Below are positions 33,956 through 46,121 of a stretch of DNA of 64,000 bases, piece after piece. How positions within the stretch are numbered: position 1 is the stretch's first letter; every line of letters begins with the position of its first letter. Below the pieces are notes generated by a model. The model had not been told where the DNA came from. It ran no database searches and saw only the letters and a list, made by a program, of their open reading frames with translations. The translations under genes and the position numbers were made by a program. The DNA comes from Flammeovirgaceae bacterium UBA2786 (lineage in GTDB: Bacteria > Bacteroidota > Bacteroidia > Cytophagales > Cyclobacteriaceae), in NCBI GenBank assembly GCA_002352225.1, contig DEIA01000011.1, forward strand, positions 10,987-74,986. Direction: 5' to 3'.

Positions 33956-34654
33956 ATGGAAACTATCAATAGAAGAAAGTTTGTAAAACAGACTATTACT
34001 GCTGCTGCCGCTCTGGCAGTACCTGCTTCAGTTTTTGCCCATGAAACAAGGGCTGCGCTTCAGTTTACACAGGTGGTCTTACCCTATGCCGCAAATGCGC
34101 TGGAACCTAATATTGATGCGCTTACTATGGAAATCCATTACGGCAAGCATCATGCCGCTTATATCAAAAATGTAAACGATGCCATTGCTGCCGAGAATAT
34201 TCCCTATTCCACAGAGAAAGATTTTTTTGCCAATGCTTCAAAACTTTCTGCGAAAGCAAAAAATAATGGTGGCGGTGCATGGAACCATAACTTTTTTTGG
34301 CAGGTGATGAGTCCTAATGCCAGTGGCACCCCGTATGGTAAACTGGTAGCAGCATTAGATGGTGCCTTTGGTTCTGTACCTAAGTTTAAAGAACAGTTTA
34401 CGGCTGCTGCTATGAGTCGTTTCGGATCGGGTTGGGCCTGGTTAGTAAAAGATGGTAACACCTTAAAAATAGGTAGTACACCCAATCAAGATAATCCCAT
34501 GATGGACAGTAGCGAATTGAAAGGCACTCCTTTATTGGCTTTGGATGTTTGGGAGCATGCTTATTATTTAAAGTACCAGAACAAGCGAAACGAATACGTA
34601 GCCAATTGGTGGAATGTGGTAAACTGGGATGAAGTTGCTAAACGATTGAATTAA
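33956..34654 (+). CDS. Fe/Mn superoxide dismutase with a twin-arginine signal peptide
   Basis: SOD motifs HYGKHHAAY and DVWEHAYY. The N-terminus METINRRKFVKQTITAAAALAVPASVFA-HE fits a Tat signal (RRxFxK plus AxA). Confidence 0.9.
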   Translation: METINRRKFVKQTITAAAALAVPASVFAHETRAALQFTQVVLPYAANALEPNIDALTMEIHYGKHHAAYIKNVNDAIAAENIPYSTEKDFFANASKLSAKAKNNGGGAWNHNFFWQVMSPNASGTPYGKLVAALDGAFGSVPKFKEQFTAAAMSRFGSGWAWLVKDGNTLKIGSTPNQDNPMMDSSELKGTPLLALDVWEHAYYLKYQNKRNEYVANWWNVVNWDEVAKRLN

Positions 34655-34661
34655 TCTACAT

Positions 34662-35123
34662 GTGAAAAAAATTCAATTGTTTTTGTTGTTGCTGACTTCA
34701 GCCATCTGCCTGAATGCACAAAACCGGCAGGAAATTAAGATGTACAAAACGTTTGGTGGTGCCCGATTTGAAATGGACTCGCTTGTATTAAGTCCAAAAC
34801 AAGTTTTGCAGATTTTAAATACTGAACCTCTTGCATTCGAAAAATTTAAAAAAGCAAAAGCCAATTACAATGCCGCAGGTGTATTGGGTTTTGCTGGTGG
34901 GGTTCTTATTGGGTTGCCTTTAGGAACGATGATTGGGGGAGGTAATCCGGAATGGGGGTTGGCTGTGGGGGGTGGTGTATTAATTTTGGGGTCATTATCG
35001 CTAACCCGTGTATTCAGAAGTCATGCGTTTGAAGCCATTGAACTATACAACGGAAAAACAGCACGCCTAAAACCACAGTTTCAATTTTACGGAACCGGGG
35101 CTCGTTTAGTGATGCGGTTTTAA
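34662..35123 (+). CDS. hypothetical exported / Gly-rich membrane protein
   Basis: Signal peptide MKKIQLFLLLLTSAICLNAQ (GTG start) and Gly-rich hydrophobic segments. Confidence 0.5.
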   Translation: MKKIQLFLLLLTSAICLNAQNRQEIKMYKTFGGARFEMDSLVLSPKQVLQILNTEPLAFEKFKKAKANYNAAGVLGFAGGVLIGLPLGTMIGGGNPEWGLAVGGGVLILGSLSLTRVFRSHAFEAIELYNGKTARLKPQFQFYGTGARLVMRF

Positions 35124-36149
35124 AATTTCCGGAGAATAAACACGGAGTATATCAGTTTCAATTTTTTCTTCTGCTACAAGTAAACCAGTAAATGCCGGTG
35201 CTGCTATACCTGAATAAAATTGACGCGATGAAGTAAAGACACGGGCCTCATCCCACAATCCCTGATTGATAAATAACGATAAGGTAGTGCTACCCCCTTC
35301 TACCATTACAGATTGAATTCCGATAGATACAAGGTGTTCCAAAAGTGACTCCAGAAAATTATTTTCTGGCAATCGAATTAATAGCAAATCAGGATGCTCC
35401 TCATGTTTCAATACATTGTAACAAATGGTTTTAACCGATCCATCAAATAGTGAAAGCGTATCAGGCAAACGCAAGAATCGGTCAATCACTAACCGCACAG
35501 GATTACGGCCCGACCAATGGCGCACAGTTAACACCGGGTTATCGTGTGCTGCTGTTTTTGTACCAATTAAAACCGCATCTTCTTCGCTACGCCATTTATG
35601 TACTACCTGCCGCGACTGCTCATTGCTGATCCACTTCGATTCGTAATTGGTGCGTGCGATAAAGCCATCGAGCGTTTGAGCCCACTTCAACATGATGTAG
35701 GGCCGTTGCTTTTCGTGAAATGTAAAAAATCGTTTATTCAGCTCTCGTCCCTCATGTTCTACTACTCCTTGTGCCACCTCAATGCCGGCTGCCTTTAGTT
35801 TAGCTATACCTTTCCCTCCCACCAGGGTATTCGTGTCTGTATTCGCAATTACTACTTTACCTACTTTATGCTGAATCAATAAATCGGCACAAGGGGGCGT
35901 TTTACCAACGTGTGCACAAGGTTCAAGATTAACGTAAACTGTACTTCCGGCAAGGTGATTTTTATCGGCCACACTATTTACCGCATTTGCTTCTGCATGA
36001 AGGCCGCCAAATTGCTTGTGCCAGCCTTCGCCAATTATTTTTCCGTCTTTCACAATTACACAACCTACTAATGGGTTGGGACTAACAGAACCCATACCCT
36101 GTCTGGCCAGTTCAAAACATCGGTGTATATAGTGTTGATCGGTGAGCAT
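35106..36149 (-). CDS. ribD: bifunctional riboflavin biosynthesis deaminase/reductase RibD
   Basis: CMP/dCMP deaminase zinc motif (HAE ... EPCAHVGKTPPC) followed by a RibD_C reductase domain. Confidence 0.92.
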   Translation of the reverse strand: MLTDQHYIHRCFELARQGMGSVSPNPLVGCVIVKDGKIIGEGWHKQFGGLHAEANAVNSVADKNHLAGSTVYVNLEPCAHVGKTPPCADLLIQHKVGKVVIANTDTNTLVGGKGIAKLKAAGIEVAQGVVEHEGRELNKRFFTFHEKQRPYIMLKWAQTLDGFIARTNYESKWISNEQSRQVVHKWRSEEDAVLIGTKTAAHDNPVLTVRHWSGRNPVRLVIDRFLRLPDTLSLFDGSVKTICYNVLKHEEHPDLLLIRLPENNFLESLLEHLVSIGIQSVMVEGGSTTLSLFINQGLWDEARVFTSSRQFYSGIAAPAFTGLLVAEEKIETDILRVYSPEILKPHH

Positions 36150-36183
36150 AGAAATTACTTACCTTGCAAAGATCAATTTCGGC

Positions 36184-37023
36184 ATGACCAATTCCAAAGA
36201 ACTTTTCAGCGAAGTAGTAAGGCGTATTAACCTGCCCGAAGCCAAAGCAGAAATTGAAAGCATTGCCCTCCTGTTGTTGGAAAAGAAGTGGAATATTAAT
36301 CGTACGGATATTCTGGCTCAAAAGCCCATACAGCTAGAGTGGAATGAAATTGACTCTTATATTCAACGAATCAATACGCACGAACCTATACAATATATCT
36401 TAGGTGAAACAGATTTTTATGGAAGATCTTTTCGGGTTAATTCTTCCGTGTTGATACCCCGACCCGAAACAGAATTGTTGGTTCAGGAAATTATACACCA
36501 CAGCAAACCGGGTGCTAACCCTTTAGCTATGCTCGATATTGGTACCGGTAGTGGCTGCATTGCTATCTCGCTTGCATTGGAGTTGAAATGTACAATGAAG
36601 GCCATTGATGTAAGTTCGGTTGCACTTGCTGTTGCCCGGGAAAATGCCACCCGGCTGAAAGCAAATGTTCATTTTATGGAATCTGATATTTTAAGTGATC
36701 CGCTTACAGAAAAGTTTGATGTGATAGTAAGTAACCCGCCATACATCTCGCAACACGAAAAACAAAGTATAAAATCTAATGTACTGAAATACGAACCGCA
36801 CACGGCATTATTTCCAGCCGGTGATGACCCGCTTTTGTTTTATCGTGTAATTGCAGCGCAGGCAAAAGACACATTAAACCCGAATGGCTCGTTGTGGTTT
36901 GAGATTAATGAGCACCATGGAAAAGAGATTTGTGAGATTATGTACTCTGCCGGGTTTGGGACTGTGGAATTACTTAAAGATTGGAGCGGAAAGGATAGAG
37001 TAGTATGGGGAAAGATTATTTGA
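36184..37023 (+). CDS. prmC: release factor glutamine N5-methyltransferase PrmC
   Basis: DIGTGSGCI SAM motif and the VSNPPYI (NPPY) motif. The start is placed at the ATG at 36184 because the longer frame from 36142 overlaps the ribD start. Confidence 0.88.
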   Translation: MTNSKELFSEVVRRINLPEAKAEIESIALLLLEKKWNINRTDILAQKPIQLEWNEIDSYIQRINTHEPIQYILGETDFYGRSFRVNSSVLIPRPETELLVQEIIHHSKPGANPLAMLDIGTGSGCIAISLALELKCTMKAIDVSSVALAVARENATRLKANVHFMESDILSDPLTEKFDVIVSNPPYISQHEKQSIKSNVLKYEPHTALFPAGDDPLLFYRVIAAQAKDTLNPNGSLWFEINEHHGKEICEIMYSAGFGTVELLKDWSGKDRVVWGKII

Positions 37024-37049
37024 TTTGATCTAATAAAATTTTCCATTGG

Positions 37050-37634
37050 CTAATTCAACCATTCTCCCACCCAAAAAGATTGTTCTCCCTGCAGAGTCAA
37101 TATCCCATCCTGTTTCGCAACTAGTTTTCCATTTACCAATTGTGGTATTTTTGTGTGAACGTTTTCGGGTAAAACAAAAAGCATTGTTCCGGCTGCTATC
37201 CATTTTTCAAACCGACCGGATTTAATACGACTCCAACGTTTACTCTCAAAGAACGCTTCCACATCACCGGTAAACTCCTCCAGTGTGCTTAATGTGTTTT
37301 CATCTGATGCCAGTACGTTCATGGCAGGAATGTGCCGGGCCGCCAGAATTTCTATTGCCTTGCTTAAAGGAATTTCATTTATACTAAATGAAACTATTTC
37401 AATTGGGTATTGATCTTTCGTTCGGTCAATCCAAATTTCCTCCTCGCCCGCAGGCACCAGCACTACATCTATTTTAATTCCCCACCCCACTACTATTTCT
37501 ATTTGTGAATGTAAAACAACAATAATGGGCATCCATTCTAAAAGCTCCTGTACTCTTTCAAGGGGAATGGCGTGCGCATTCAGAATAACTAATGCGGGTT
37601 CCTGATTTTCGCGTACAATGTGGTGGCTGGACAT
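37050..37634 (-). CDS. hypothetical protein, last gene of the amidoligase operon
   Basis: 194 aa. Its ATG overlaps the upstream stop (TAATG, sharing nt 37634). N-terminus MSSHHIVRENQEPALVILN. No confident family assignment. Confidence 0.6.
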   Translation of the reverse strand: MSSHHIVRENQEPALVILNAHAIPLERVQELLEWMPIIVVLHSQIEIVVGWGIKIDVVLVPAGEEEIWIDRTKDQYPIEIVSFSINEIPLSKAIEILAARHIPAMNVLASDENTLSTLEEFTGDVEAFFESKRWSRIKSGRFEKWIAAGTMLFVLPENVHTKIPQLVNGKLVAKQDGILTLQGEQSFWVGEWLN

Positions 37635-38821
37635 TACTCAAAAAAGCAAACCGAACCACCCACCCATGTTTTATCTTTATTAAATTTCACTCCAATCATC
37701 TCGCCCCGGCTAAGGCGCGCCAGGTTAGTGATTAGTTGGGGTCTGGACTCTCCTTCATTCCATAAAAACAATAACCGGATTTCTGTTTTCACTAATCCAT
37801 CGGGGGCTTGAATAACCGGTTCGTAATGTACCTTCCGTTGCAGCATAAAGTTCTTACGGTCGGCAGCCGGAATTGAATCCAGGTCGGATTTCGTTACATG
37901 AAAAATTACTCCGCTTCCGGAAAAAGAGAAAAGCGGTTTCAATACATAGTCACCAAGGTTATCTGGCCATGACTTGTATTCATTCAGAAATTTACATTCG
38001 GGTACCGCATCACTTTGCACAAACGGCATCGTGTATTTACTAATATAAAAAAACCAGTTGGGATGCCCGGCCCATTCAACCTCTACATCTTCTGTAAGAT
38101 GGAAATTTGTTTTCAGGTCTTTTTGTGCAAGTAATTCATCAAAAATTACGCGGTTGTAAATCCGGTGAACCGGAATTTCAACTCCATTTTTCTTATAGAA
38201 TAACTTCTTGTTTCTGATAATAATATCCCCAATATGAACAGGAGCTATTCCTAAATGTTTTTGAGTAATTAAAAAATCGATAGCTGTGTTTTGTTTTAAC
38301 GGATTTATTTCCAGCAGGATTACATTTTCCGGATTGTGCTTACCTACAATGGCCTGCCTGATTCGCTGCCAATACTCGGTTGAATTTAATCCAAAATGGA
38401 AATGTAGATTATCAGGAATACGATAATGCTCTTTGAATTTATTTCCAAGAAAATCCTGATACCCAAACAAGGATGGAAATCCCTGCATTTCAATTAAGCG
38501 AGGAACACGCACCCCATTCTCTGTACACACCGCAAAGTCCAGTGCAATAAATAATGTGTTTGCTGTTTCGTTTGGTACACGCAGGTTTTCGGGCAGAGCG
38601 CCCTGCATTTTGGTTTTGAAACCCGGCCGAACTATTACATCGATAATTTCATTGGCTGCTTTAAATAGCTTTTCACCAAATTCTTTCCCTACAAACACCG
38701 GGCTTTCGGCTACCCGGAATGGAATTTTATAATTAAACTCCTGATCGAGGTCGTTTAGAAATTGTTGATAGCTATCAATCGAAAATTGTTGATTAAAAAA
38801 CTGCCGGGCCTGGGGTATCAT
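37634..38821 (-). CDS. circularly-permuted-type ATP-grasp-like protein (putative amidoligase)
   Basis: The pattern ALDFAV...PRLIEMQGFPS, PVHRIYNRVIFDEL, YVLKPLFSFSGSGVIF, MLQRKV and ARLSRGEMIGVKFN...GGS resembles CP_ATPgrasp family landmarks. 4-nt overlap with the upstream gene. Confidence 0.5.
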   Translation of the reverse strand: MIPQARQFFNQQFSIDSYQQFLNDLDQEFNYKIPFRVAESPVFVGKEFGEKLFKAANEIIDVIVRPGFKTKMQGALPENLRVPNETANTLFIALDFAVCTENGVRVPRLIEMQGFPSLFGYQDFLGNKFKEHYRIPDNLHFHFGLNSTEYWQRIRQAIVGKHNPENVILLEINPLKQNTAIDFLITQKHLGIAPVHIGDIIIRNKKLFYKKNGVEIPVHRIYNRVIFDELLAQKDLKTNFHLTEDVEVEWAGHPNWFFYISKYTMPFVQSDAVPECKFLNEYKSWPDNLGDYVLKPLFSFSGSGVIFHVTKSDLDSIPAADRKNFMLQRKVHYEPVIQAPDGLVKTEIRLLFLWNEGESRPQLITNLARLSRGEMIGVKFNKDKTWVGGSVCFFE

Positions 38822-39657
38822 ACAATTACAGAGCTTAGGCGATTACGCAAGGCTGTCATTAAGAACCGCGGCACTACTGTAGAATACGTAAGCATAATTT
38901 TATCCGGATCATTCAAATGATCAAGCATGCCCCAGTATTTATTTTCTCCATGCTTTTCAATTACCAGTTTTTTCTTGTCTTCGCGCAGTAGATACATGCG
39001 CATACCCACCGCATCGGCTTCCGGATGAAATTGCATGCCAACAATGGCTTCGTTAAACCGAATCGACATTATGGCCCGTTCCAGAATAATATGCGGCCTG
39101 AATTTTTCAATACATAATATTTCGCCACCAGAGGCTTGTATCTTTTTTATGTTGGGTTCTGTAATTTGATAATCGCGCGAATCGACTGCCCACAAAGGAT
39201 CGCCCAGCGAACGAAACAAAGGATCGTGATGGCCTGCGCTTGTTTTGTGCACAGGCATTACGCCAAATGATGTTGATTTTCTTTTTGAAACCTTTCCTAA
39301 TTCATAATGGCGGCAAAAGATCTGAAAGCTGTGGCAGATAAGAAGTACATGTTTTTTGCTTTCAGGATTTGCCTGGTTGTATGCCATAATAGAATCCATT
39401 AAGGCAAAGTATTTTTTCTCCCATATCGTGTCTGCGCTATCTAACGGACTTCCCGGGCCACCGGAAGAAATGTAAACATCAAAATTCAGATCGGGAACTT
39501 CGTCTTTAAGCCGAACATCAAATATTTTATAGTTTACCATCAAATGGCAATCGGCCTCAAATTCTTCAATTAACTGCCGAATGCCACGCATTCCTTCATT
39601 GGCCTGTCCTTCATATAAATCGAGAATGGCAATATTAATCTGAGTATCTGCTATCAC
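38818..39657 (-). CDS. class-I glutamine amidotransferase-like protein
   Basis: ISSGGPGSP, the nucleophile elbow LLICHSFQ (Cys), and GMQFHPE (His-Glu). The triad is intact. Confidence 0.8.
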   Translation of the reverse strand: MIADTQINIAILDLYEGQANEGMRGIRQLIEEFEADCHLMVNYKIFDVRLKDEVPDLNFDVYISSGGPGSPLDSADTIWEKKYFALMDSIMAYNQANPESKKHVLLICHSFQIFCRHYELGKVSKRKSTSFGVMPVHKTSAGHHDPLFRSLGDPLWAVDSRDYQITEPNIKKIQASGGEILCIEKFRPHIILERAIMSIRFNEAIVGMQFHPEADAVGMRMYLLREDKKKLVIEKHGENKYWGMLDHLNDPDKIMLTYSTVVPRFLMTALRNRLSSVIV

Positions 39658-39666
39658 GCTTTCGGG

Positions 39667-40764
39667 TTATAATCCTCGCAGGGTTTCATCGGTTATGTAA
39701 TCGACTACTTTTTCTAAACTACCTGTTTCTTTATACACAGCTAGTTGGCGGTCGGCCCCGGTTCCCTGCTCTAATATGGTGCGAATATAATTGATTGCCT
39801 TGCGGCTGCCAAGTTCATCTACTACATCATCGATAAACTCTAACAACTCCAGAATAAGTCCACGCGTGTCCAGTTCTACCTGTTTGCCAAAATCTATAAG
39901 CTTTCCGTCAAGACCATACCGTGAAGCACGCCATTTGTTTTCATTAATTAGTGCCCGCGTGTACAAAATAAAACTCATGTTTTGCAACCGTAATTTATAA
40001 AGCTTTACCACCAATGCCTGGAATACTGCGGTAATGGCAATGGTTTCTTCTACGCGCATGGGCACATCGCAAATACGAAATTCAATTGTATCAAAAAACG
40101 GATGTACGCGTACATCCCACCAGATTTTTTTTGCGTTATCGATACAGTTGGTTTGAATAAGCAGGTTTACATAGTTTTTAAAATCATCCCAGTTCTCGAA
40201 CCTATCGGGTATACCCGTACGTGGAAACTTATCAAAGACTTTTGTACGAAAAGACTTAAATCCGGTATTACGCCCCTCCCAGAAAGGCGAGTTGCAACTG
40301 AGGGCATACACATGTGGTAAAAAGTAGCGCACCGTGTTTTGAATATGAATAGCCATATTCTTGTCTTTGATACCTACATGCACATGTAATCCAAAAATAA
40401 GATTAGAACGGGCAGCCTCCTGCATTTCCTGCACAATCTCATCGTACCGTGGATTGGGTGTAATCAATTGCTTGCTCCAGTGCGAAAAGGGATGGGTACC
40501 CGAAGCTCCGATCTTTAATCCAAGCGTACCTGCCACTTCGCTAACTACTTTGCGCAACGTTGCAATTTCTTGATAGGCCTGCGTAACATCTTTACAAATG
40601 CCGGTACCTACTTCCACTACTGCCTGGTGCATTTCGGCTTTTACACTATCATTCCCTACATGTGCAGCCAACTCTACTATTTTTTGATCGTGCGAAGTAA
40701 GCTCCCGCGTGTGCGGGTCAATTACCATGTACTCTTCTTCAACACCCAGTGTAAAACTCTCCAT
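39667..40764 (-). CDS. carboxylate-amine ligase, glutamate-cysteine ligase family 2 (YbdK-like)
   Basis: N-terminus FTLGVEEEYMVIDP, plus GTHPF and LHVHVGI motifs characteristic of GCS2/YbdK. Confidence 0.85.
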   Translation of the reverse strand: MESFTLGVEEEYMVIDPHTRELTSHDQKIVELAAHVGNDSVKAEMHQAVVEVGTGICKDVTQAYQEIATLRKVVSEVAGTLGLKIGASGTHPFSHWSKQLITPNPRYDEIVQEMQEAARSNLIFGLHVHVGIKDKNMAIHIQNTVRYFLPHVYALSCNSPFWEGRNTGFKSFRTKVFDKFPRTGIPDRFENWDDFKNYVNLLIQTNCIDNAKKIWWDVRVHPFFDTIEFRICDVPMRVEETIAITAVFQALVVKLYKLRLQNMSFILYTRALINENKWRASRYGLDGKLIDFGKQVELDTRGLILELLEFIDDVVDELGSRKAINYIRTILEQGTGADRQLAVYKETGSLEKVVDYITDETLRGL

Positions 40765-40791
40765 AAGCCAACAAAGAATTAAATCGTATAA

Positions 40792-41811
40792 TTATTTTTT
40801 AGAAGATTTAGGTTTTGATTCTTTAGCCGAAACTTTAGCCACCTTTGGTTTTACCTGGCCTGCTTCAAATGAAGCTACTGAACTGGTAATAAACGTTCCC
40901 CACGTAAGGTTGTCTTTGCCGGGTTTTTGAATTTGTGCACGTTCCACAGCTATTTTAGCAGCGTGCTCTACTACCCAGTCAAAATTTTCCTGGCCTACCG
41001 ATGTTACCTCTGCATCGGGGGCAGGGTTACAAAAATCTATGGCATATGGAACCCCATTGCGCACGGCCAGCTCTACAGTATTAAAATCGTACCCAAGCGC
41101 ATTACATAAATCCAAAACATAATCGTGCACCTTCTTTAATAATTTTTCTGATGCCGGGCCATTGTTGCTTTGATACCGAAGATGATGCGGGTTGCGCGGT
41201 TCATATTGCATAATGCGTACATACTTTCGGCCCAGGCAATAGCATCGGAAATAATCTTCGAAGATAATTTCTTCCTGCAGCATCATCACCAACTGACCGG
41301 TTTCTGCATAGGCTTTAAAGAAATCATCCTTGTTATTGAGTTTGTACACACTCTTCCAGCCACCACCGGCATGGGGTTTCATGTATGCCGGCCAGCCAAT
41401 GTGGTCGAATATTTTTTCCCAGCTAAGCGGAAATTTCAGATTGCTAAAAGATGCTTCGCCTGTATCGGTTGGGCGTTCGTGCGAGGGAAGGATTACCGTT
41501 TTGGGCACGGGTACACCAATCTTTACGGCTAATGCGTTGTTAAAAAATTTCTCATCTGCGCTCCACCAAAATGGATTATTAATTACAGCAGTACCCGATA
41601 TGGCAGCGTTTTTTAAATAGGCCCGGTAAAAGGGAACGTCTTGCGAGATACGGTCTATGATAACTGCAAATTCTGTTGGTTCGGCCTGGCTCACCATGTC
41701 TACTTGCACAGGTTCGGCTTTAATGTCTTTTAATCCCATTTTATTAATGCGCTCTACAAATGCATCCGGAAAAGAGCGTTCCATACCGTGCAGAATTCCA
41801 ATCTTTTTCAT
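40792..41811 (-). CDS. ATP-grasp protein (RimK / glutathione-synthetase-like) with a Lys-rich tail
   Basis: Pre-ATP-grasp plus ATP-grasp pattern (DRISQD..., KIGVPVPKT, PAYMKPHAGGGWKSVYK, MLQEEI, ELAVRNG.PYAIDFCN). C-terminal KPKVAKVSAKESKPKSSKK. Confidence 0.7.
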   Translation of the reverse strand: MKKIGILHGMERSFPDAFVERINKMGLKDIKAEPVQVDMVSQAEPTEFAVIIDRISQDVPFYRAYLKNAAISGTAVINNPFWWSADEKFFNNALAVKIGVPVPKTVILPSHERPTDTGEASFSNLKFPLSWEKIFDHIGWPAYMKPHAGGGWKSVYKLNNKDDFFKAYAETGQLVMMLQEEIIFEDYFRCYCLGRKYVRIMQYEPRNPHHLRYQSNNGPASEKLLKKVHDYVLDLCNALGYDFNTVELAVRNGVPYAIDFCNPAPDAEVTSVGQENFDWVVEHAAKIAVERAQIQKPGKDNLTWGTFITSSVASFEAGQVKPKVAKVSAKESKPKSSKK

Positions 41812-41845
41812 GTGTACTGGTTTTTTGGTTCAACTTATTTTTTAA

Positions 41846-42556
41846 TTATCGGATAAGAGAAAGGTAATGCGGAAACATTTCGCGCCACGCGGGCCAATCG
41901 TGAGGTGCATTCTGGCGAACATCTAACCAATAGTTAACTCCCTTGTTCTGAAGGATGTTGGCCATCTTTACGTTTGCATCCCAGCACATATCGTGTGTGC
42001 CTGTACCCAGTACTACGTACATATCGGCAAAGAATGGGTTGCTTGCACTGGGTATAAAATCAAGTGGATTATTAAAATACACATTATCATCGTAGTAGCC
42101 ATCCAGCTGATCTTTAATATCGAAAGCTGCTCCCATATTAAATACATATTTTACTACTTCAGGATGTTTGAACGCAAAGTTAGTTGCATGATACCCACCA
42201 AAGCTACAGCCGGCTGTGGCTACCCGCCTTACGCCCGTTTCGTGTTGGGCAAGGGGCACAAGCTCCTCTAACAGCATCAAATCGTACCAGATATGATTGC
42301 GAACTCGGTCGGCCGGATGGATGTTTTTGTTATACCAACTCGTTTCGTCAATGCCATCTACACAATAAATTTTTACCAGGCCTTCGTCTAAAAACCACGC
42401 TACGCTATCAATCAATTTAAAATCTTTGTTCTCGTTATAGTGCCCCATTGAAGTGGGAAATAAGATTACCGGATACCCGCGTGTACCAAAACTTAACACT
42501 TCAATATCGCGGCTAAGGCGGGGAGAATACCATTTATGATAATGTTCGTGCGGCAT
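41846..42556 (-). CDS. esterase-family alpha/beta hydrolase, first gene of the operon
   Basis: Esterase-D-like fold pattern with the nucleophile elbow GCSFGG and a C-terminal HDW(P) His. Confidence 0.7.
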   Translation of the reverse strand: MPHEHYHKWYSPRLSRDIEVLSFGTRGYPVILFPTSMGHYNENKDFKLIDSVAWFLDEGLVKIYCVDGIDETSWYNKNIHPADRVRNHIWYDLMLLEELVPLAQHETGVRRVATAGCSFGGYHATNFAFKHPEVVKYVFNMGAAFDIKDQLDGYYDDNVYFNNPLDFIPSASNPFFADMYVVLGTGTHDMCWDANVKMANILQNKGVNYWLDVRQNAPHDWPAWREMFPHYLSLIR

Positions 42557-42649
42557 AGGCTGGTAAAGTTCTTATTTTTGGGCTGGTAATTTTCTGTTGA
42601 AAATCGGAAATGCCTTTTAAAATAACTATCTAATTTAATTATTTCATTC

Positions 42650-43474
42650 TTGCCGCAGGTTGCACACTATCATCTCGAGAAACTTACCGATATACACTCT
42701 AAGCTACTGGCACGCGACACTGTGGTGGATATTCTGCTTCCATCAGATTATGCCAAAACCGATAGCCTATACCCACTTTTGATCTTAAATGATGGCCAGG
42801 ACAGTGAACGCATTGGCCTTAAGAAAACGGTTGAGCAACTGGTGCACAGACATGAAATTGAAGATATTATTATTGTGGCTGTGCATGCAGGCGACCGCAT
42901 GCAGGAATACGGGGTGGCTGCACGATCTGATTTTAAGAAAAGAGGAGGCAAAGCTAAAGACTATACACGGTTTATTATTACCGAGTTAATTCCTTACCTG
43001 GAATACCGTTACCCGGTTTCAAAACAAGCCGCGCAGCGAGCCATTGCCGGATTTTCGCTGGGTGGGCTTTCCGCTCTGGATATTGCATGGCACAATGAAT
43101 ATTTTGGTAAGATTGGCGCTTTTAGCGGATCTTTCTGGTGGCGTAAGCGCGATTCCTCCAGTCGGTTTTACTCCGAACATTACGATCGTATTATGCATCA
43201 GCAAATCCGGAAAGGAAAATACCGGCCAGGATTAAAATTCTGGTTTCAAACCGGGCTGCTCGATGAGCAGAGTGATCGGAACAAAAACGGGGTAATTGAT
43301 TCTATTGACGACACCTTAGACCTGATCGTGGAATTAACTAAAAAAGGGTATCGCCCCTTTCATGATATCCAATACCTTGAACTACCCGATGGCGCACATG
43401 ATTTGCCCACCTGGGGTCGTACCTTGCCAACGTTTTTGAAGTGGGCTTTTGGAACTACTAAACCTGTAAAATGA
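42650..43474 (+). CDS. esterase-family alpha/beta hydrolase (enterochelin-esterase-like)
   Basis: PLLILNDGQD, the nucleophile elbow GFSLGG, and a C-terminal DGAHD. TTG start. Divergent from the amidoligase operon. Confidence 0.7.
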   Translation: MPQVAHYHLEKLTDIHSKLLARDTVVDILLPSDYAKTDSLYPLLILNDGQDSERIGLKKTVEQLVHRHEIEDIIIVAVHAGDRMQEYGVAARSDFKKRGGKAKDYTRFIITELIPYLEYRYPVSKQAAQRAIAGFSLGGLSALDIAWHNEYFGKIGAFSGSFWWRKRDSSSRFYSEHYDRIMHQQIRKGKYRPGLKFWFQTGLLDEQSDRNKNGVIDSIDDTLDLIVELTKKGYRPFHDIQYLELPDGAHDLPTWGRTLPTFLKWAFGTTKPVK

Positions 43475-44088
43475 CAACCGTTAACACTATTGTATTTGAC
43501 CTTGGTGCCGTACTAATCGATTGGAATCCCCGACATCTCTATCGTAAAATTTTTAAAACCGAAGAAGAAGTAACCTGGTTTTTGGAAAACATTTGCACGC
43601 ACGATTGGAACGAGAAACAAGATGCAGGTAGGCCTTTCGAAGAAGCTACTAATGAATTGCTTGCAAAATTTCCGGCATACGAAATTCCCATTCGCGCCTG
43701 GTACGGTCGTTGGCAGGAAACCATCAGTGGCCCCATTCAGGGCACGGTTGACATACTTACGCAGATGCGCGACTCTAAAAGGTTTAAACTTTATGCCCTC
43801 ACCAATTGGTCGGCCGAAACATTTCCATGGGCTTTAGAAAAGTTTGAGTTTCTCTCGTGGTTTGATGGCATCGTGGTTTCGGGCCATGAAAAAACCCGCA
43901 AACCATTTCCTGAATTTTTTCAGATTTTGTTTGATCGGTATACCATTAACCCTGCACAAGCCTTATTTATTGACGACAGCCAGCGCAATATTAATGGGGC
44001 AATGGAGGTGGGGCTGCCGGGCATTCATTTTCAATCGCCCGAACAATTAAAAACAGAACTTATTAAAAGAGGTATTCTTATTTCTTAA
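43471..44088 (+). CDS. HAD-superfamily hydrolase (subfamily IA-like)
   Basis: VFDLGAVLIDW (DxG/DxD-type motif I), LTNWS (motif II) and FIDDS (motif IV). 4-nt overlap with the upstream esterase. Confidence 0.8.
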   Translation: MTTVNTIVFDLGAVLIDWNPRHLYRKIFKTEEEVTWFLENICTHDWNEKQDAGRPFEEATNELLAKFPAYEIPIRAWYGRWQETISGPIQGTVDILTQMRDSKRFKLYALTNWSAETFPWALEKFEFLSWFDGIVVSGHEKTRKPFPEFFQILFDRYTINPAQALFIDDSQRNINGAMEVGLPGIHFQSPEQLKTELIKRGILIS

Positions 44089-44132
44089 TTGTAACATTTG
44101 ATTTGATAAACTGACCTCCCAATAGTAAAACT

Positions 44133-44882
44133 ATGAAACATTTTTTTCGCACTGTTTTGTTAGCCATGTTATTTGTTACCTGTAAATCATCTGTAGAAAA
44201 TAAGGTTGATTTAATTGCGCTTACCCAGCAAATAGTTGGTGTGTACGAAGCCTCGTTGCCCTGCAATGGCTGCATTAGCATCGAATATCAGTTAGAGCTG
44301 GAATCTGACTCTACATTTATTGAACATATCTCTTACCTGGGTAACCCCGATGGGAATTACGAAGTACATGGTAAGTGGGGTATTGAAAGCGATTCTTTAA
44401 TTACACTTTATCCGGGCCGGTTAGCGTATAAAATAAAAGCAAATGCAAATGGAAGTTTAACCATTACCGATGCCATTGAAAATCATCTTGAAAGTCAACC
44501 TGCTATTTTAGAACGATTAGGAACCGTTCAAAAAACAGATGCAGCTGTTTTACTTAACGATATCTGGGTACTGGAAGCAATTGATCAGACGGAGGTAGCC
44601 GAAGCTGATTATGACCACGAACGCCCACGACTGGAATTTCAAAAAGCTGAGGGAAAAGTGACGGGCACCACCGGTTGCAATCAATTAATGGGAACCTACA
44701 CAACACAAGGCAACAACATTGCTTTTGGTCCAATGGCCCTTACTAAAAGAGCTTGCCCCGGTAATCTTGAAGATCAATTTATTCAAGCTCTGCATGAAGT
44801 ATCTGGCTTTACGATTGCAAACCTGAAACTGTACCTGCTATCCGGCAGCGCAGAGAAATTGCGATTCAGAAAAGTAGATTGA
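44133..44882 (+). CDS. lipoprotein fusing an NlpE-N-like domain to a META domain
   Basis: Lipobox LFVTC. YEASLPCNGCISIEYQLEL matches the NlpE N-terminal CxxC module. The C-terminal half has the META pattern GTTGCNQLMGTY...TKRAC. Confidence 0.7.
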   Translation: MKHFFRTVLLAMLFVTCKSSVENKVDLIALTQQIVGVYEASLPCNGCISIEYQLELESDSTFIEHISYLGNPDGNYEVHGKWGIESDSLITLYPGRLAYKIKANANGSLTITDAIENHLESQPAILERLGTVQKTDAAVLLNDIWVLEAIDQTEVAEADYDHERPRLEFQKAEGKVTGTTGCNQLMGTYTTQGNNIAFGPMALTKRACPGNLEDQFIQALHEVSGFTIANLKLYLLSGSAEKLRFRKVD

Positions 44883-44891
44883 TTATTTTTT

Positions 44892-46121
44892 TTAAGCCAG
44901 TATTACGCTTTCAATTATATCGCAACATTCGTGAATCTGTTCTTCGGTAATCACCAAAGGAGGCGCCAACCGGATAATGTTACCATGTGTAGGCTTGGCC
45001 AGTAAACCCTTCTCCGCAAACTTCAGGCAAAGATTCCAGGCCGTTTCACTTTCGGAACTGTCGTTTACCACAATAGCATTCAGTAGTCCTTTGCCCCGAA
45101 CTAACGTAATGAGTTTGGTTTTTTTCATTAGCTCCTTCATGCGATTGCGAAATATATCGCCTAATCGATTGGCATTATCAGCCAGGTTTTCATCTTTTAC
45201 TACTTGTAATGCCTCAACCACAACAGCAGCAGCTAACGGGTTTCCTCCAAATGTTGAACCATGCTCGCCCGGTTTAATCACCAGCATAATATCATCATCG
45301 GCCAATACTACCGAAATGGGTAGCACTCCGCCAGACAGTGCTTTGCCCAATATGAGCAAATCAGGTCTTACTTCTTCGTACGCGCTGGCTAACATTTTAC
45401 CCGTACGCGCAATACCTGTTTGAATCTCATCCATCATCAGCAACACGTTATGTTGCTTACATAAATTTGCAGCCGCTTTTAGGTAGCCGTCTTTGGGTAC
45501 ATACACTCCTGCTTCGCCTTGAATGGGCTCAATCCACAAGCCGCATACATTTGGATTACCTAATGCTTTTTGCAGTGCAACAACATCATCGTAATCGATA
45601 ATTTCAAAGCCTGGCATAAATGGGCCAAATCCCTTTCTGGCCGATGGATCGCTTGATGCTGATATAATGGTAGTGGTGCGGCCATGAAAATTTTTGTGTG
45701 CTACTACAATTACAGCCTTGTTGTCTTCTATTCCTTTTTTGGTGTAGCCCCATTTACGGGCCAGCTTAATGGCTGTTTCGTTTGCCTCGGCCCCGCTGTT
45801 CATAAACAGGGCTTTGTCATATCCAAATGTATCGCACACGTATTTTTCAGCCACACCAAGTTTATCGTTATAAAAAGCCCGCGAAGTAAGTGTTAGTTCT
45901 TTGGCTTGTTCAATCAGCGCATTTATTATTCGCGGATGGCAATGCCCCTGGTTTACGGCACTATATGCAGAAAGGAAATCGTAATAGCGTTTGCCCTCCA
46001 CATCCCACAAAAAAACCCCTTCGCCTCGGGTAAGTACTACCGGCAAGGGATGGTAGTTATGCGCTCCAAATTTTTCTTCTAAATCTATCGCCTCCTGGCT
46101 GGATGTAATTGTGCTTACCAT
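44892..46121 (-). CDS. rocD: ornithine aminotransferase
   Basis: Class-III aminotransferase with [10 protein letters not shown]...[31 protein letters not shown], typical of RocD. Confidence 0.88.

Follow-up and report, generated by a model that had tools for sequence, protein, structure and literature searches.

Locus and gene organization

The DNA stretch analysed here (the window) comprises 64,000 nucleotides of contig DEIA01000011.1 (positions 10,987 to 74,986 of the forward strand) from Flammeovirgaceae bacterium UBA2786, a member of the Cyclobacteriaceae. On its minus strand lie six genes, designated A to F in the order of transcription, that form one chromosomal operon at 37050-42556, the order of which is kept across Bacteroidota; two further genes, G and H, are transcribed divergently from A (Table 1). 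The presence of three different families of ATP-dependent ligases in this operon, represented by B, C, and E, has been verified.

The genes of the operon are tightly packed. According to the coordinates of the open reading frames (ORFs) in the window, only 34, 27, and 9 nucleotides separate A from B, B from C, and C from D, and the sequence itself shows that the stop of D and the start of E share ATGA (38821-38818, an overlap of 4 nucleotides) and that the stop of E and the start of F share TAATG (37636-37632, an overlap of 1 nucleotide). Both the coordinates and the overlap letters agree with the initial annotation of the locus, which had described six packed minus-strand genes. The motifs that it quoted are likewise all present, namely EEEYMVIDP, GTHPF, and LHVHVG in C, LICHSFQ and QFHPE in D, GCSFGG in A, GFSLGG in G, and the Lys-rich tail in B. 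The second esterase and the HAD phosphatase that it placed on the opposite strand are found as well, but the phosphatase gene runs to 44088, past the end given for the finding.

Table 1. Genes of the operon and its divergently transcribed neighbors, with predicted products
Gene	Predicted product	Position in window	Strand	Protein length and remarks
A	Serine alpha/beta hydrolase of PF00756, first gene of the operon	41846-42556	minus	236 residues
B	Divergent ATP-grasp ligase, Lys-rich C-terminal tail	40792-41811	minus	339 residues
C	YbdK-type GCS2 carboxylate-amine ligase	39667-40764	minus	365 residues
D	Stand-alone protein of class-I glutamine amidotransferase (GATase) fold, Cys-His-Glu triad	38818-39657	minus	279 residues, GTG start
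E	Permuted ATP-grasp ligase, eukaryotic glutathione synthetase/GspS/YgiC type	37634-38821	minus	395 residues
F	Lineage-restricted accessory protein, no fold assigned	37050-37634	minus	194 residues
G	Esterase of PF00756, divergent from A	42650-43474	plus	274 residues, TTG start
H	HAD-IA phosphatase, gene overlaps the end of G	43471-44088	plus	205 residues

GC content is flat over the operon region of the window. Proteins identical to those encoded here occur in NCBI metagenome-assembled genomes of Cyclobacteriaceae and on one contig of 3.3 Mb. An Rfam search of 36000-45000 returned no match, and hence no riboswitch that could hint at a ligand, while a scan for sigma-70 promoters and terminators gave results at or below the shuffled expectation, the sigma-70 model being unsuited to Bacteroidota promoters.

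The three ligases

Protein C is by sequence a YbdK-type GCS2 carboxylate-amine ligase, as had been proposed at the outset. It exceeds the cut-offs of Pfam PF04107 (221.8 bits against 21, expectation value 1.6e-65) and of NCBIfam NF010039 (531.3 bits against 371, with residues 2-364 covered), matches the solved YbdK structures 1r8g (3.4e-50) and 1tt4 (1.3e-51), and has 153 of its 365 residues invariant among 57 orthologues. C falls below the equivalog models of glutamate-cysteine ligase, with 362 bits against 409 for NF010043, 282 against 427 for NF010042, and 69 against 249 for TIGR02048. Those relatives in the superfamily that have been characterized form gamma-glutamyl-type amides from glutamate and cysteine or an amine.

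Protein B is a divergent enzyme of the ATP-grasp superfamily. Pfam yielded no match for it, and the evidence comes from weaker similarities: TIGR00768 (rimK_fam) over residues 31-248 (4.4e-7), the LysX model (2.7e-6), and a match of its profile (A3) to the ATP-binding half of the D-Ala-D-Ala ligase 3r23 (1.4e-4). Invariant in 61 orthologues are K145, the G149-G-G151 loop, Q179-E180, E247, D259, and N262, among which, judging by pattern, K145 would bind ATP, the QE pair would form the hinge, and the E/D/N residues would make up the metal site. Of the likeness to RimK and glutathione synthetase claimed initially, membership of the superfamily stands on TIGR00768 and 3r23, whereas the RimK family as such does not, since 29.6 bits were reached against a cut-off of 143.4. 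When the B profile was aligned by hhalign with the single sequences of E. coli GshB and RimK, the probability was about 1%, too low for any subfamily assignment. The name 'glutathione synthase' that B carries in databases was rejected as over-annotation.

Protein E, labeled 'hypothetical' in its sources, belongs to a large family, which forms 1164 clusters when grouped at 50% identity and over 8000 at 90%. No family in Pfam or NCBIfam matched it up to 0.01, GSP_synth, CP_ATPgrasp_1, and CP_ATPgrasp_2 included, and the single sequence gave no direct match in the PDB. A profile of 45 diverse family members matches E. coli YgiC (1.9e-4) and 3n6x (4.5e-4), the latter presumably a circularly permuted ATP-grasp of type 2. 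AlphaFold2 gave a model with a predicted local distance difference test (pLDDT) score of 91.8 and a predicted template modeling (TM) score of 0.91 on an alignment of 90 sequences; from the single sequence, the pLDDT was 32.

Comparison of the AlphaFold2 model with the PDB by Foldseek, in which matches of the permuted type all had a probability of 1.00, ranked 3n6x (putative glutathionylspermidine synthase; 6e-16, TM 0.59) first and yeast glutathione synthase 1m0w (1e-14, TM 0.62) second. YgiC (7uk8, 4e-12), soybean homoglutathione synthetase (3kal, 1e-10), nematode glutathione-synthetase-like effectors, YjfC, Cp1B, trypanothione synthetase, and E. coli GspS were also matched, the entries for the GspS/trypanothione synthetase/YgiC/YjfC group being 2io7, 2vpm, 7uk8, and 7uk6. 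The nearest classical ATP-grasp structures, synapsin (1.3e-3) and LysX (6.9e-3), were far weaker. Aligned by hhalign, the E profile matches YgiC with 92.6% probability over the segment containing K295-P and the Gly-rich loop, where VLK295-P-LFSFSG302-S-G304 of E faces VVKPIFSREGANV of YgiC. Among the 45 diverse sequences, conservation of K295, P296, G302, and G304 reaches 90% or more, and by conservation alone E39, D95, E111, Q113, E347, R349, and R369, invariant or nearly so, stand out as candidate Mg-site and catalytic residues. The model, the Foldseek search, the family profile, and hhalign thus agree with the permuted-ATP-grasp likeness first suggested for E, which is predicted to be a ligase of the eukaryotic glutathione synthetase/GspS type. 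Every structural neighbor of E that has been characterized uses an acyl-phosphate to link a carboxylate with either an amino acid or a polyamine (PMC12568646), and the RefSeq name of YgiC is now peptide-spermidine ligase.

The GATase-fold protein D

Protein D is predicted to be a triad enzyme of class-I GATase fold working through an acyl-cysteine. It passes Pfam PF00117 (34.6 bits, cut-off 22.8), which is matched by 11 of 11 diverse members, and the triad already noticed in the initial annotation, C108/H211/E213, is invariant in 74 sequences, including the partners of E at 30% identity, together with the surrounding C108-H-S-x-Q112 and H211-P-E213. The nucleophile elbow reads L-I-C-H-S-F-Q instead of the canonical G-x-C-x-G. 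Among solved structures, the D profile is best matched by MetA homoserine O-acyltransferases (2vdj, 5.9e-6), with the catalytic cysteines aligned, whereas true glutaminases score 0.16 or worse. Even so, D lies far under the MetA and GATase equivalog cut-offs, and the HTS model is touched by only one of the 11 members; 'GMP synthase' and 'homoserine O-succinyltransferase', as D is called in databases, were rejected as over-annotation, given that the equivalog cut-offs are missed.

It had been suggested at first that D could supply ammonia or act as a gamma-glutamyl peptidase. The evidence favors the side of a hydrolase or transferase over that of an ammonia supplier, because the D profile is nearer to MetA than to glutaminases, because metallo-hydrolases replace or accompany D beside E in relatives (see below), and because glutathionylspermidine synthetase/amidase, the only related system that has been studied well, has its ligase coupled with a cysteine amidase.

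Esterases, phosphatase, and protein F

By sequence, A and G are assigned to the broad esterase family PF00756, and both have the GxSxG serine and the C-terminal histidine intact. A, which its sources call 'esterase family protein' only, reaches 31.2 bits where 22 are required, and its 48 orthologues all keep G116-C-S118-F-G120, D189, and H219. G, correctly recognized at first as a second esterase, reaches 107.8 bits against the same cut-off of 22 (1e-30) with invariant G134-x-S136-x-G138 and H250. More specific models failed: G obtained 59 bits against 222 with the enterochelin-esterase model NF007758, and with TIGR02821, which represents S-formylglutathione hydrolase/esterase D, G obtained 16 against 281.7 and A no match. 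For A, which had been described as esterase-D-like, membership of PF00756 is upheld, but a likeness to esterase D/S-formylglutathione hydrolase is not demonstrable. H matches HAD_2 at 1.3e-11.

In L009 and about 20 other Cyclobacteriaceae loci, A and B stand about 0.9 kb apart, and many relatives encode there an additional hydrolase of the S33/Abhydrolase_1 type, of 305 residues and with a signal-peptide-like N-terminus (4087-5004 in L009); the window, where 34 nucleotides separate A and B, lacks it.

Protein F was initially listed without assignment and remains so, given that searches of Pfam, NCBIfam, and the PDB were empty with both the single sequence and a profile. Of the 80 loci, 36 have F downstream of E; without exception these are closely related to the window, and most are labeled Cyclobacteriaceae or Cytophagales. 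The 13 N-terminal residues, MSSHH-x2-RE-x-QEP, are invariant in the 36 orthologues while the remainder averages 50% identity, suggesting that the N-terminal motif is functional. A thiamine-pyrophosphokinase-like Rossmann segment, considered for F from an N-terminal pattern seen by eye, was supported by no search.

Conservation across Bacteroidota

A genome scan recovered 80 loci at species level, which belong to Cytophagales, Flavobacteriales, Sphingobacteriales, Bacteroidales, Chitinophagales, and Saprospiraceae; gene order was counted in the 59 species-representative genomes having at least 6.5 kb upstream of E. The genes co-occur well outside the window: in 41 of these 59 genomes, spread over several orders of Bacteroidota, A-B-C-D-E stand in the same order with G divergent, and in 73 of 75 loci D immediately precedes E, usually at a spacing of 0-30 nucleotides. 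Such an arrangement is far beyond chance. The D-E pair is evolutionarily the tightest unit, and the serine hydrolases are consistently attached to the operon, G being divergent from A in Cytophagales, Flavobacteriales, and Sphingobacteriales loci. The link of H to the system is weak, as it co-occurs only in Cytophagales-type loci. A variant found in Saprospiraceae consists of B-D-E, with C absent.

Mean identity to orthologues is 83% for A, 87% for B (the most conserved gene of the cluster, up to 96%), 86% for C, 69% for D, 71% for E, and 50% for F, the least conserved. With 86% for rocD, 71% for ribD, and 57% for prmC in the neighborhood, A, B, and C are as conserved as the housekeeping neighbor rocD and more so than ribD and prmC. 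A plasmid search with B and E returned zero matches for either.

Distant and variant contexts of E

Pairings of E persist at great distance. At 30% identity, a homologue of E is still preceded by an overlapping gene of GATase fold, and at 28-29% identity homologues follow GCS2-like genes in two loci, of which one (L088) has a C-terminal GCS2 fragment (5e-7) and the other (L082) a protein of 346 residues starting FGIEQEFFIL, located after a radical SAM gene. Hydrolases recur in the vicinity: in L070 the slot of D is taken by Peptidase_M29, one Amidohydro_3 gene stands in front of D-E in Terrimonas and a second, in L085, overlaps the start of E, and Peptidase_M17 and a PF00756 esterase are found near E in Saprospiraceae.

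Several more isolated observations concern the same family. Two distant homologues have polyamine genes as neighbors, namely an upstream gene for a Spermine_synth-domain protein of 992 residues in L092 (4710-7688) and a convergent arginine decarboxylase gene in L085 (9196-11091); the resulting polyamine link of E is suggestive only. In a single case, L081 (8001-10613), a sodium:solute symporter (PF00474) is fused to a full-length E-type ligase in a protein of 870 residues (P0124), with the partners D, B, and C absent nearby, and E may accordingly act on an imported solute. Another homologue adjoins a PGM1-type ATP-grasp peptide ligase, itself with a signal-peptide-like start (L086, 545-2221 and 2354-4861). 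Several distant homologues (L086; proteins P0145, P0154, P0187, and P0203) carry N-terminal extensions of 160-190 residues that begin like signal peptides; they could be secreted effectors or have mis-called starts, exported ATP-dependent ligases being odd.

One long-read Flammeovirgaceae genome has D and E in a single in-frame ORF of 591 residues (L036, 7296-9056), with approximately 40 residues missing from the end of D and 43 from the beginning of E; this may be a real fusion or an assembly error. The D-E spacer of one Chitinophagales/Saprospiraceae-type locus consists of 690 nucleotides of short tandem-like repeats (L073, 4230-4919), whose ORF translations repeat SLTSNLTMCLIFSNADVRA, and resembles repeat or insertion debris and not a gene. 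Saprospiraceae-type loci further contain, immediately upstream of B, a gene for a glycogen-binding-domain protein of AMPK1_CBM/CBM48-like type with 102-126 residues (L075, 5561-5869; L073, 1883-2263), as well as a second ATP-grasp-like gene, encoding 400 residues, convergent downstream of E.

Proposed function

By a slight balance of probability, the operon is taken to direct the stepwise, ATP-dependent, non-ribosomal assembly and the turnover of a small peptide-like metabolite. Small-molecule assembly is indicated because the genes are packed, encode three ligase families, and keep their order, and because the D-E and GCS2-E pairs recur; because in relatives various hydrolases replace D or accompany it beside E, and one homologue adjoins a PGM1-type peptide ligase; and because the characterized structural neighbors of E join carboxylates to amino acids or polyamines. 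In the scheme envisaged, C would form a gamma-glutamyl-type amide, B would extend a carboxylate through an acyl-phosphate, and E would couple the resulting acid to a further amine (amino acid or polyamine). D, translationally coupled to E, would act via an acyl-cysteine intermediate, most likely as the matching amidase/transferase that mirrors the amidase domain fused to glutathionylspermidine synthetase and less likely as a glutaminase feeding ammonia to E, while A and G would trim, release, or recycle the product. We infer that this product is a gamma-glutamyl-type peptide or a peptide-amine conjugate, and the roles of D and the esterases have been deduced in the same manner.

Since A, B, and C are so strongly conserved, the product would be a core physiological metabolite and not a strain-specific antibiotic, for instance a thiol with a redox function, an osmolyte, a conjugate of a polyamine, or a cofactor. 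More specific, and unlikely though worth entertaining, is an unrecognized core metabolite of Bacteroidota for which C and B would make a gamma-glutamyl peptide and E would add a polyamine, or ammonia with D as the glutaminase. If true, the product would be glutathionylspermidine-like or glutathione-amide-like, its level being set by the E/D pair as synthetase and amidase and also by A and G as thioester- or peptide-cleaving enzymes, and the long-orphaned YbdK family and the Pfam-less E family, with its more than 1000 clusters, would gain their first physiological roles.

Several points weigh against small-molecule assembly by the whole operon. D and E occur without A-B-C nearby in 7 of the 59 loci and E stands alone in some distant lineages, so the five genes need not share one substrate molecule. 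B lies below the cut-off of every specific ATP-grasp family, and for E. coli YbdK only weak activity has been reported. In the hhalign alignment, E has F-S where YgiC has an 'R-E' pair in front of its Gly-rich loop; E is therefore considered catalytically competent from the pattern of its conserved, invariant charged residues only. How the steps are ordered is guesswork, the substrates are deduced, and none of the six proteins has a product, substrate, or activity on record.

Two other origins of the gene set were considered and rejected. A pathway for a peptide made on the ribosome and modified after translation (RiPP) is excluded because gaps of 9-34 nucleotides leave no room for a precursor ORF and because the longer D-E spacers of Saprospiraceae are repeat debris with no conserved peptide. 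A mobile or secondary-metabolite island is at odds with the flat GC content, the lack of plasmid matches for B and E, and the conservation at housekeeping level.

Competing explanations

A serious rival, albeit with a low probability, is that D and E constitute a glutamine-dependent amidotransferase, in which D would hydrolyse glutamine, the ammonia would be channeled to E, and a carboxylate of the product of B and C would be activated by E with ATP and converted into a carboxamide. Only the roles of D and E would differ from those proposed above, the logic being that of CarA-CarB or MurT-GatD and the product being amidated, for example glutathione-amide-like. The passing of the Pfam class-I GATase cut-off by D, its Cys-His-Glu triad, and the glutamine at position C+4 fit such a function, as do the translational coupling and nearly invariable adjacency of D and E. 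Textbook precedent for a GATase subunit acting with an ATP-grasp enzyme is given by carbamoyl-phosphate synthetase, and the D-E ORF of L036 adds a small gain, if it is not an assembly artifact. The details of D argue otherwise, however, given that L-I-C-H-S replaces the G-x-C-x-G elbow, that its profile reaches MetA at 5.9e-6 and glutaminases at 0.16 or worse, and that metallo-hydrolases take or share its position next to E. Moreover, the characterized structural relatives of E all use organic amines and not ammonia.

It is improbable that the operon serves protein modification instead, with B, and perhaps C and E, adding amino acids to a conserved protein and D and the serine hydrolases removing the tag. 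RimK adds glutamate to ribosomal protein S6, and both RimK and LysX, the best family-level matches of B, act on protein C-termini; the high conservation of B would suit this role, and its Lys-rich tail could bind an acidic macromolecule. In comparative work on amidoligases, Iyer et al. 2009, as cited in PMC4431377, reportedly proposed peptide tagging for gene sets of this sort. Nevertheless, B stays at 29.6 bits where RimK requires 143.4, its Lys-rich tail is missing in Saprospiraceae orthologues, the operon contains no gene for a candidate substrate or for a carrier protein like LysW, and the characterized relatives of C and E all act on small molecules.

Gamma-glutamylation for the catabolism of, or protection from, amines is quite improbable. 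In this scheme, C would attach glutamate, the intermediate would be processed, and D would remove the gamma-glutamyl group, as with the transient handles of PuuA/PuuD, gamma-glutamylanilide synthase/hydrolase, and EgtA/EgtC. The adjacency of C, which has a glutamine-synthetase-like fold, to the GATase-fold protein D across 9 nucleotides recalls a pairing that recurs in known pathways (textbook knowledge); the arginine decarboxylase of L085 and the Spermine_synth protein of L092 beside distant E homologues point in the same direction, and the symporter fused to one homologue suggests an imported substrate. Yet an oxidase, dehydrogenase, or aminotransferase that could process a gamma-glutamylated amine is missing from the operon, a catabolic route would hardly be expected to spend ATP on two further ligases, the linkage of D is tighter with E than with C, and the polyamine neighbors amount to two anecdotes among about a dozen distant contexts.

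That the genes are mere neighbors through inherited synteny, with no common function, is hardly credible: the majority of the loci compared are from Cytophagales, where the unrelated flanking genes rocD, ribD, and prmC are also syntenic, but the A-B-C-D-E order holds in Flavobacteriales, Sphingobacteriales, and Bacteroidales loci despite different flanks, genes overlap at their starts and stops, and the pairs D-E and GCS2-E reappear at 28-30% identity where the surroundings are unrelated.

Relation to known systems

Small-molecule assembly by the operon can be compared with several characterized systems. With GspSA, trypanothione synthetase, and YgiC/YjfC, E shares the permuted ATP-grasp fold with its K-P and Gly-rich ATP loop, but only 10-16% sequence identity. 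As in GspSA, the ligase is coupled to a hydrolase-type module with a cysteine nucleophile; the module of GspSA is a fused CHAP amidase, whereas D is a separate polypeptide of class-I GATase fold. Glutathione-type synthesis (1m0w, 3kal) offers a second parallel, as the GCS-family ligase C is encoded together with the glutathione-synthetase-like E, and E homologues of distant lineages again have GCS2-like genes beside them. C belongs, however, to the YbdK-type NF010039 and not to the validated glutamate-cysteine ligase models, and glutathione synthesis needs no third ligase, GATase-fold protein, or esterases, whereas the operon adds B, D, and A/G. With MetA, D has in common the fold and the Cys-His-Glu triad, the nucleophile being aligned with Cys142 of MetA, but it is far under the equivalog cut-offs of MetA and of stand-alone GATase-like proteins.

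Multi-amidoligase operons are known as a kind. Iyer, Abhiman, Burroughs and Aravind (2009, Mol Biosyst 5:1636) reportedly predicted them by comparative genomics. According to PMC4431377, several unrelated stand-alone amide-forming enzymes are linked in such operons, as is the case here, and work one after another on a small molecule, as is proposed here. Stepwise pathways of stand-alone ligases have been characterized for E-64 (Cp1B/Cp1D) and dapdiamide (DdaF/DdaG) (PMC12568646); Cp1B of the former is a structural neighbor of E. Antibiotic clusters are patchy in distribution, whereas the present set of esterase, ATP-grasp, GCS2, GATase, and permuted ATP-grasp is phylum-wide, like a core function. 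The specific set found here is without an assigned product in the literature searched and in database names, and in line with the initial annotation, no biochemical characterization of the arrangement was found in either, the catalogue of Iyer et al. 2009 lying outside the comparison.

To our knowledge, no clear physiological role has been established for YbdK-type GCS2 ligases in the time since the E. coli structure became available, and a fixed operon with two other ligases offers a way to the real substrate. The large E family, which is without a Pfam or NCBIfam model, is now placed as permuted ATP-grasp and has a cysteine-triad protein as its almost constant partner. That A, B, and C are conserved at housekeeping level suggests a metabolite that is central to abundant Bacteroidota of soil, water, and wastewater and not a niche antibiotic. 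In addition, stand-alone ATP-dependent amide ligases are sought as biocatalysts (PMC12568646).

Neighboring genes

Two further features of the window lie beyond the end of F. Judged from translations, a RibD-like deaminase/reductase (35106-36149, minus) and a PrmC-like methyltransferase (36142-37023, plus) are encoded divergently with their 5' ends overlapping by 8 nucleotides, an adjacency that is kept in relatives. Farther away, a Fe/Mn superoxide dismutase-like ORF (33956-34654, plus) starts with a twin-arginine-type signal (INRRKFV...AALAVPASVFA), which suggests that the protein is exported.

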